The position numbers and the translations under genes are program-made. Shown here in pieces: positions 61,149 to 63,882 of a stretch of DNA of 64,000 nt. The stretch is from positions 372,001-436,000 of the forward strand of contig JBDOQK010000007.1 in assembly GCA_040437565.1 (NCBI GenBank). The letters run 5' to 3'. Source of the DNA: Albugo candida (Eukaryota). The first letter of the stretch is position 1. Each line of letters opens with the position of its first letter. The notes below the pieces were generated by a model. The model was not told the origin of the DNA, ran no database searches, and was given only the letters and a program-made list of their open reading frames with translations.

Positions 61149-63882
61149 ATGCATCATGAGCTCTTCCTCGCGTTATTTGGTCATGTCGGCGATTTAATCG
61201 ATGTCAGAGACGATGGGTATTATATCCGTCCCGAAGTATCCATTCTTTCAGATGCACAAAAGGTTCAGGTGAATCAGTTACTGAATCTTGGATTCAACTA
61301 CACAATTCTGCAGGAATTCGTTCGTATCGCACAAACAACGACCTCCTACGCGAGTGTCTACGTCACTGGACTGAGTCACGGTATCGAGCATTATCTCGAG
61401 AAATACGGCCACACAGTCGTGCAATTGGAAGAGAGCATTTTATCGAGCAGAGTTTTGACTCCGATACCTCAATTGATGTACGAGCTACAAGACTTTATTG
61501 AGATATTTCCAGAGCTGCGTAAATTAGTTGAGAGGATCCATCCTTCCGCTTGCAAACTCGCCAACAAAAAACGTGAAGATAACGATCCTGTCATACATCA
61601 AAAAACGATCACAGGCCCTTCGTTGTTGGAATTGCTGTACGCGTTGAGCGTGACTGGATATCCCCGGGTTCGAGAATGCATCCATTATCTGCACCAGTGC
61701 TGTCATCGGTATACACGAAATAGCTTGTACTTTTGCTTGAGCTGATGGATCTGTACGACAGGATTCTGTACAAACAAATGATTTCATGGATGCTGTATGG
61801 AACCTTATTGGATCCTTATCAAGAGTTCTTTGTGAAAATTGCGTCAAAGCACCAAAAGCTCAAAAGTGGTGAGTCGGATACAATGACATTCACTCTGGAT
61901 TTGAATGCGATTCCAGGCTCTTACATGCCGGTTTCGATCGCTGAAAGTATCTATTTCATCGGCAAATCGATGCAAATTCTTATGGCAAATGGCAAGCAAA
62001 ATCGAGGTTTTTGCGAGGTTATTGAGCAGGAAAGCCACGAAATTGTGAATGTGATAAATGAATTGGCTCGAGAGGATACATTCGATATATTGCAAGTAGA
62101 GCACGCGATCGAGAGTATCCGCGCGCGAGTTGCGAAACATCTGTATCAGAACGTTGTCGTGCATGCGGAATTCATTCAATGTTTCGATGCAATAAAGCAG
62201 TTCTTCCTTTTGTCGCGTGGAGAATTGTATCAGACGTTTATCGAAGAAAGCTTCTCCATCATGCAGACAAAGCCCTCAGTGAAGTTACAAGAAACTCTCA
62301 AACACAACATTTGGAAGCAGACACTTCAAGATTTACAGCTTGATCGAGACGATTTTGCGGCGAGCATTCATTTGCGTGTGAGTCCGTGGCGATCTGCTTA
62401 TCTGATTCTGACTTTGTGAATGTGTAGCTCCCTCTTCAAACGTTTTTCTTTCGACGATTTCATGTGCTGGATGGGCTTCAAATACATAATATTTCCAATG
62501 AGAAGACCGGTAAATGGTTGGAAGCCAGGCAGCAGGAAGCTTTAGGACGCATTTTCGGCCTCGTATGGTGGAAGTCGGAGCAATACGAACGGTATCCTTT
62601 CTCGACCAAAATTGAAATTCAAGTACCTTCGTCCAGTGAACTCGATGATATCACTCCGTGGTCATCCAAACTTTTGATTCTGCTTCAAAGTACTCCATCC
62701 TTCGACGCAACAATCTTCAGCAATGAAGGTGGACTAGTATTCGAGAAAGAGTCAACTACCCGCTGTCTTGGAATCGAACTCGATCTTCGAAGGCCTGATC
62801 GATGTGCGAGTGTTTTGGTCGTTCAAAGCTCCTTCCATTCCTACACCAAAAAAACGAGCAATTCAAGTCAATTTTCGCACTGGGAAAGGATGGAACAATG
62901 CTGCACCGATCGTAGTGTTCATGTTGCGATGCATATGGTTTCCGAAAAGTGTCCTATTGCAACCATAGAACTCCAATATTCTCGCATCCAACTCGCAAAT
63001 GCTTCCAATAAAAATCAAATGTCATACAAAAAGGGAATTTCCATCCAAGTCAATGAGATTCCTGTCTTGGAAAGTCTCGTGGATGTAGAAGAAATACTCG
63101 ATCTGCGTCCATCAAACGATAAGTACTGGCTCGGTCTTGGTCTCGGACCTCGTCTTCGTGTGGCTGCATGGAGCTGTGAAAAGTATTCGATAAAAGCATT
63201 CAGAGAATCCAACCAAATTCTGACGAAAAATCAGACTCTTCCTCCACGGGAATTATGGAATCATTTGTGTTTGCATCCTCATATTCCATGGCCATTGCCG
63301 CTTTTGATCACCAAAGACGATCTCCAGCTATACAACAATTTGTTTCAGTTTTGCTTTCGACTCAAACGGATTGGGTACGCGCTCGAGCACACGTGGAAAA
63401 TCGATTCGTTGCGGCGTTATTCCAAACAAAAATCACTGCTTGCAATTTCAGCTTTGCGTAATCGAATGTCGTACGTCATTCAAAATATTCAGATCTACTT
63501 CCAAGTTCTGGTCATTGAAGCGAATTTTCATAAATGCCGGGAAGAGATGCAAATGTCGGATAATTTCGATCAAGTGAAAAGACTCCACGAATGCTTTCTG
63601 GCGGCGCTGATCAAGCAATGCTACATTTACTCGAGGACCATCATGACGGCTCTGGATGATATCATACAGTGCTGCTGGCACTTTGTCGACTTGATTTTAG
63701 CATGCGATCAAGCTTCATTGGATAGCGCTGAGGAACGTTATAAATTTCGATCGCTGGAAACGGAATTTGTGCAACGGCTCGATTTTTTCTGTGGGGTTTT
63801 GCAGCATTCTGGGCAAGCTCGAGATCTATCGTTCCTCCTTGAATACAACGAGTTCTTCATTCGACCTCAAGAGCGCCATTAG
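61149..63882 (+). CDS. TUBGCP4: Gamma-tubulin complex component 4 with a large internal insertion; introns 61709-61761, 62378-62427
   Basis: MHHELFLALFG (GCP4-type start), ILYKQMISWMLYG.LLDPYQEFF, AESIYFIGK, KQFFLLSRGELYQTFI, W..L.L...IPWPL.LL...YNNLFQF...LKR, YFQVLVIE, FD.V..LH..FL (GRIP1/GRIP2). Confidence 0.9.

Follow-up and report, generated by a model that had tools for sequence, protein, structure and literature searches.

An L-type lectin-fold domain within the GRIP2 region of GCP4 in Albugo candida and distant relatives

Introduction

To our knowledge, gamma-TuRC structures come almost exclusively from animals and fungi, and GCP4 has been treated as the ring's minimal core spoke. In the vertebrate ring, GCP4 is described as occupying spokes 9 and 11 (bioRxiv 10.1101/2024.11.05.622067), and every GCP as having a "spoon": a pair of short helices plus two antiparallel strands which, at the ring's outer face, look towards the next spoke's CM1 pocket (bioRxiv 10.1101/2023.12.14.571518). 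GCP4 also acts in tethering, augmin HAUS1/HAUS4 being reported to bind it directly at mouse basal bodies (bioRxiv 10.64898/2026.10.08.757802), and in yeast an insertion in GRIP2 is described as bracing the spokes (PMC7658347). The GRIP2 insertions of yeast Spc97/Spc98 and the insertion elements of GCP5/GCP6 are among the closest described counterparts of the system reported here: like it, they are lineage-specific additions, which brace neighbours or dock partners; unlike it, they are short or helical/unstructured and belong to other subunits, whereas the GCP4 insert is a borrowed globular domain.

The second component of this system is the legume lectin fold, in which the N- and C-termini are adjacent, the basis of the circular permutation of ConA; this adjacency makes insertion of such a domain into a loop structurally easy. 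The fold has been redeployed elsewhere. Arcelin and the alpha-amylase inhibitor are legume lectin derivatives devoid of sugar binding; like the GCP4 insert, they combine the lectin fold with a site that has degenerated, and arcelin-1 turns up among the matches, but they are secreted seed proteins as opposed to part of a cytoskeletal complex. L-type lectins are described as jelly-roll beta-sandwiches of 25-30 kDa, whose Ca2+ and Mn2+ sites adjoin the sugar site (PMC5486065); the sugar contacts of legume lectins as a loop-A Asp, a loop-B Gly-Gly, a loop-C Asn with an aromatic residue, and loop D (PMC13086875); and a ConA-like lectin domain as lying inside cytosolic multidomain BEACH proteins such as neurobeachin and LYST (PMC6104133). 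The BEACH proteins thus share with the present case a ConA-like fold in a cytosolic protein, although the host protein is unrelated.

Here we describe a GCP4 gene in a 64,000-nt stretch of the genome of the oomycete Albugo candida (hereafter the window), in which an L-type lectin-fold domain is nested within GRIP2.

Results

A GCP4 gene with an insert in GRIP2

The gene spans 61149-63882 on the forward strand of the window, in three exons with a CDS of 876 aa (Table 1). Its MHHEL start is the motif that opens other oomycete GCP4s, and both splice junctions lie in gap-free alignment to the annotated protein of Albugo laibachii (P0001; UniRef F0W1V9), to which the inserted block is 71% identical and the GRIP parts 79-83%. 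Exon 2 terminates in the strand IHLR (62366-62377, equivalent to strand E406-409 of the P0001 model), the first of a GRIP2 hairpin whose second strand is placed at ~63268-63279 by the secondary structure of the models. The 275 codons from 62428 to 63252 are free of stops, as was none of 2000 shuffles.

Table 1. Features of the GCP4 gene of Albugo candida, in window coordinates
Feature	Position	Strand	Content	Evidence
Exon 1	61149..61708	+	GCP4 start MHHEL, first part of GRIP1	Pfam GCP_N_terminal, E 1.2e-16
Intron 1	61709..61761	+	GT-AG, 53 nt	junction gap-free against A. laibachii P0001
Exon 2	61762..62377	+	remaining GRIP1 and start of GRIP2	Pfam GCP_N_terminal, E 2.6e-15
Intron 2	62378..62427	+	GT-AG, 50 nt, phase 0	N-terminal edge of inserted domain
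Inserted domain	62434..63195	+	L-type (legume) lectin-fold beta-sandwich, ~255 aa	AF2, Foldseek, structural search, ESM Atlas
Loop-A position	62665..62670	+	Ser-Lys instead of the L-type lectin Asp-Gly	alignment columns, anchor P0091 to archaeal lectin 7elv
LGIELD strand	62767..62784	+	metal-strand Glu and Asp kept, loop-C Asn and His absent	alignment columns
Linker	63196..63255	+	lectin domain back to GRIP2	secondary structure of models
Remaining GRIP2	63256..63882	+	gamma-tubulin-binding helical bundles, to stop codon	Pfam GCP_C_terminal, E 8.7e-35

A preliminary description of this DNA, made from its letters, had recognized the protein as a GCP4 and quoted from the block a series of lectin-like motifs, all of which are found, in order and in a single frame: GLVWW (62557), PFSTKIEI (62596), LLILLQ (62671), GGLVF (62728), LGIELD (62767), IELQY (62965), PVLESLVDVEEIL (63061), YWLGL (63124) and LRVAAWS (63154), followed by WNHLCLHPHIPWPL (63256). 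GGLVF is present in the window, but its "GG" is not conserved even in A. laibachii, so that its resemblance to the lectin motif is positional only. The extent given there for the insert agrees with the structural boundaries (residues 412-665 of P0001, i.e., 62434-63195).

Both GRIP1 and GRIP2 are recognized by Pfam (PF17681, GCP_N_terminal, and PF04130, GCP_C_terminal). The assignment to GCP4 is borne out by a phmmer search of the PDB with P0001, in which the vertebrate GCP4s are the best solved relatives (E 4e-54 to 4e-53) as against 1e-15 or weaker for GCP2/3, so that among GCP2/3/4/5/6 it stands nearest to GCP4. The alignment begins at residue 1 of human GCP4, with no N-terminal extension, and is interrupted between 418-419 and 445-446, an interval over which the query advances from 411 to 682. 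What is a GRIP2 loop of ~26 residues in the human protein (420-445) is therefore a segment of ~270 residues here, holding the ~255-residue lectin fold, as the earlier claim of an insertion into a short GRIP2 loop had it. The GRIP fold is intact despite the insert: the full-length model of the A. laibachii orthologue (pLDDT 89.6, pTM 0.86) superposes on GCP4 (9qvm_I) with Z 30.0 over 581 aligned residues (rmsd 2.8), and the strands that flank the domain (406-409 and 690-693) are the sole strand pair in its GRIP2. Overall, the vertebrate GCP4/TUBGCP4 proteins (human, pig, Xenopus; 3rip, 6v69, 9qvm) are the best match for the Albugo protein in both sequence and structure and share with it the GRIP1-GRIP2 fold and a minimal N-terminus, with the short loop of the human protein standing against the lectin-fold insert. 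From these vertebrate structures we infer, by analogy, gamma-tubulin binding and occupancy of spokes 9 and 11.

The phase-0 intron at the N-terminal edge of the insert would be compatible with exon shuffling. At the site of intron 2 (62378-62427), P0010 begins and P0002 is gapped at the same point, which hints at a shared intron. The GCP4 models P0002 and P0078 are fused to EF-hand and ankyrin regions, respectively, and these are probably gene-model fusions.

The insert adopts an L-type lectin fold

AlphaFold2, run on the insert with a 48-sequence alignment, returned an almost all-beta model (pLDDT 88.7, pTM 0.89). With this model, SraP and legume lectins head the Foldseek rows (E about 1e-5), and a wide structural search places peanut lectin 1ciw first (Z 15.2, 197 aligned, rmsd 3.7), followed by archaeal and Entamoeba legume-lectin domains, ERGIC-53, Emp47 and VIP36; other jelly rolls score lower (Z 10-12). 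The corresponding residues of the full-length P0001 model (412-665) reach Z 16.7 against legume lectins. In the ESM Atlas, legume-lectin clusters come top (0.95) and the ten best matches are all of the legume-lectin clan; the recognition value, 1954, counts as weak support by the tool's own rating. The insert is accordingly a jelly-roll beta-sandwich of the L-type lectin fold by AF2, Foldseek and structural search alike, and the ConA-like beta-sandwich that had been read from the order of the motifs is what the predicted structure displays. A homodimer prediction for the domain scored 0.00, in a run that left the alignment unused and the fold uncertain, and carries no weight for or against a dimer.

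At the sequence level, the Albugo insert gives little of this away: taken alone it matches no Pfam family, phmmer against the PDB retrieves a chance match (E 9.7), BLASTP against the insert-bearing relative P0091 gives E 0.034, and none of the named oomycete inserts reaches the L-type lectin families PF00139, PF18483 or PF03388. Homology is detectable in its relatives: a profile of 31 non-oomycete GCP4 carriers matches pro-concanavalin A over positions 387-618 with E 3.6e-9. With the legume and other L-type lectins (1ciw, pro-ConA 6xt6, 7elv/7exo, ERGIC-53, VIP36, SraP/Aap), the insert thus shares the beta-sandwich topology of the whole domain (Z 13-17); it differs from them in being cytosolic and nested in another domain, with 7-17% identity, and in having lost the loop-A Asp, the loop-C Asn and the His.

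The insert is widespread and old

We examined 156 proteins, of which 46 were too partial to class and were left out of the 110 classifiable relatives. Among the latter, 43 carry an insert of 136-555 aa at the same site, 66 are contiguous there and one has 35 aa; a profile search added nine further carriers. In most of the 43, which span deep branches, the insert is a folded domain of 175-400 aa. All seven named oomycete matches (Albugo, Pythium, Phytophthora, Lagenidium, Plasmopara) possess it; the vertebrate GCP4s and the four named fungal GCP4-type proteins do not. The earlier suggestion of a lineage-specific module is refined in that several deep GCP4 lineages, and not the oomycetes alone, have the domain. 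In one relative, P0022, the insert is cut down to 136 aa. P0018 is missing most of the insert and also a portion of GRIP2, probably through an error in the gene model.

L-lectin Pfam families were matched by 16 of the 118 proteins scanned, each one a carrier and none a named oomycete; six non-oomycete carriers (P0033, P0035, P0039, P0060, P0077 and P0091) pass the cut-off of PF00139, and this family already figures in the database annotation of three relatives. The oomycete copies are invisible to Pfam and have therefore been annotated as plain GCP4.

That the inserts of distant lineages are homologous emerges from two kinds of comparison. An HMM of 38 non-oomycete inserts recovers the window insert (E 5.6e-5) and 17 of the 19 from the oomycete clade; neither the reversed nor the insert-free controls came below E 1. 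By HHalign, the oomycete group is joined to three further groups with a probability of 93-97%, seven reversed controls staying under 1%. An AT-rich group (P0162-P0166), with an insert at the same site, has no significant link to the others by either HMM or HHalign. P0162-P0167 are Asn/Lys-rich GCP4s in which the same-site insert opens with lectin-like motifs. The insert is, then, old and extends beyond the oomycetes.

In free trees of the insert-free cores (57 rows chosen from a larger set), the carriers do not form one clade and the backbone is unresolved; these trees entail six insert changes, two of them forced by starred branches. A tree in which 31 carriers were constrained to group outscored the free quick search by 32 log units, with p-AU 0.87; the single-clade tree is not rejected by this value, and one origin is plausible, which falls short of proof. 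On these sequence comparisons, the domain was probably acquired in a single insertion event.

The canonical sugar and metal site is lost

The register of the site was anchored through P0091 to the archaeal lectin 7elv, and 66 inserts were scored (not counting P0008, P0027 and P0090, each of them a duplicate, a fragment or a non-insert). In L-type lectins the Ca2+/Mn2+ ligands are Glu, Asp, Asn, Asp and His of the E-x-D strand and the following loop. The loop-A Asp occurs in none of 18 oomycete-clade inserts and in one of 48 others (1/66 overall), the window having Ser. At loop B the window has GG, which is not conserved in A. laibachii, in columns that align poorly; the loop-C Asn and its stacking aromatic are absent from the window, where the loop is shortened. 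The metal ligands are reduced to E and D in the window, and across the 18 oomycete-clade inserts the metal strand has E in nine, D in six and His in none. The full set of site residues is kept in none of the 66 inserts. The canonical sugar site is therefore lost, as had been anticipated from the window (loop-A Asp 1/66; Asn and His absent): although it adopts the lectin fold, the domain does not belong, by its site residues, to the functional legume-lectin family. The least decayed copies are P0060, which retains E, D, N and H without the loop-A Asp, and P0091, P0070 and P0033, which retain E, D and H; judging from these residues they would be the best candidates for residual metal or glycan binding.

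The 876-aa protein lacks both a signal peptide and a membrane helix (its highest Kyte-Doolittle value for a 19-mer is 1.31) and so meets no secretory glycans and, being cytosolic, little free Ca2+. Going by its residues, the domain probably does not bind sugar.

Discussion

We propose, with a probability of about 0.5 and by analogy with described rings, that the insert is a non-sugar-binding docking or bracing module on the outer wall of the ring at spokes 9 and 11. Briefly, we envisage that an L-type lectin domain entered the GRIP2 beta-hairpin loop of GCP4 once, early in a large protist group, and has been kept since; its canonical Asp/Asn/metal site has decayed, and the GCP4 core is intact. 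The host hairpin would be the outward-facing spoon, an orientation inferred by equating the insert-bearing hairpin with the published one, resulting in two lectin-fold knobs per ring, on spokes 9 and 11, which would adjoin the CM1-type pocket side of GCP5 and GCP6. There, they would most likely serve in protein-protein contact, holding the ring to an anchor particular to the lineage, such as a basal body, root or spindle-pole factor, or alternatively seating against the neighbouring spoke. We advance more tentatively, as a possibility we would not favour on present data, a broader version in which the rings of these protists, possibly SAR-wide, bear two lectin-derived outer-wall knobs as a dedicated anchoring/activation interface, replacing or standing beside tethering via augmin, NEDD1 and CM1, the insert being a rare genomic marker uniting these lineages and its least decayed copies perhaps binding metal or a cytosolic glycan.

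A stricter role as a built-in brace or regulator is in our estimate rather unlikely; here the domain would lie against the following spoke (GCP5 or GCP6) and either set the closure of the ring or block it, as a hard-wired CM1-like element and not by binding an outside factor. The spoon is stated to contact the n+1 subunit and CM1 helices (bioRxiv 10.1101/2023.12.14.571518), D542 of Spc98 to cap the CM1 helix of Spc110 (PMC8099430), and yeast GRIP2 insertions to align spokes (PMC7658347), though the Spc98 insertion appears to occupy a different loop. The insertion site maps near Spc98 residue 540, if a profile alignment is extrapolated ungapped, and the whole-chain pTM of the P0001 model (0.86) would suggest a fixed pose. 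Against this, the vertebrate CM1-type pockets are placed on odd spokes, whereas the spoon of GCP4 faces even ones (bioRxiv 10.1101/2023.12.14.571518). Also unlikely in our judgement is that the domain is a passenger which the protein tolerates, inserted long ago into a loop permissive of additions and kept only because clean excision is rare, with selection acting on folding alone. The insert diverges faster than the GRIP core (mean identity among ten oomycetes 33% versus 49-52%); the residues conserved across lineages, including the core G, W and F positions retained among the inserts, lie chiefly in core strands and form no clear surface patch in common; and loop lengths vary, with one copy truncated. 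These patterns also fit a passenger, and most of them tell against the docking module. However, a complete folded domain has been retained in most carriers across deep branches, and the oomycete-invariant residues of exon 3, including W47, W48, Q52 and R186 (14/14), suggest more than drift.

That the domain is still a lectin, which binds a cytosolic glycan through a non-canonical site, we regard as improbable. O-fucose or O-GlcNAc on envelope or MTOC proteins are possible ligands of this kind, part of the metal strand persists in P0060 and in P0091, P0070 and P0033, and non-canonical legume-like lectins exist, with SraP and Aap among the top structural matches; yet the site is incomplete in every insert, the loop-A Asp being all but gone, and the protein lacks a signal peptide or membrane helix. 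As for the block being an intron, a separate gene or a mis-assembly, the chance is negligible. In-frame acceptors do occur at 63123, 63183 and 63234, but an intron of ~750-860 nt would have to be open, 71% conserved as protein and capable of folding, and the same architecture recurs in 43 relatives, among them P0035 (MMETSP), whose complete, transcriptome-derived ORF retains the insert. Splicing-out, which the preliminary description had held would undo its proposal, is rejected by the open frame, the conservation, the fold and this transcript, and an assembly artefact likewise, as no repeat of more than 24 nt touches the gene.

The existence of a lectin domain in GCP4 apparently has not been described, even though its parts are known and automatic Pfam annotation flags the fusion in three relatives. 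The preliminary description knew of no account of it, and a search of openly searchable journals (most subscription journals and bioRxiv supplements being outside its scope) agrees: among the matches listed, no such domain is described in the literature on GCP4, Spc97 or the gamma-tubulin complex with lectin, or on GCP4 in oomycetes and stramenopiles. The word "lectin" occurs 0 times in the available text of papers on Toxoplasma, C. elegans and basal bodies (PMC12421850, 10.64898/2026.08.03.742184, 10.64898/2026.10.08.757802), and the GCP4 passages of PMC9503634 mention no such domain. With a folded 28-kDa domain on both GCP4 spokes, the outside of the ring would differ in oomycetes and other protists, and the domain offers a concrete, deletable handle on how these cells position microtubule nucleation, whether at basal bodies, at roots or at spindle poles. 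Further, a complex insertion at a single site should be of phylogenetic use as a character when names can be put to its carriers.

Genomic neighbourhood

A proteasome alpha-type subunit gene (PF00227; ~59960-61022, reverse strand) appears to lie head-to-head with GCP4, ~125 bp apart, a spacing implying what may be a very short bidirectional promoter. At lower coordinates, 57183-59880 (+) encodes an STT3 oligosaccharyltransferase (PF02516, E 4.9e-107) whose C-terminal extension, rich in Cys, Gly and Asp, matches no Pfam family. Identical 163-nt copies at 59415-59577 and 59678-59840, on either side of a 100-N gap, are most likely an unmerged contig overlap, i.e., an assembly artefact. Finally, an ORF at 55888-56505 (+) has a MinC C-terminal domain (PF03775, E 7.4e-27), which fits a mitochondrial Min division system of the kind reportedly present in some stramenopiles.
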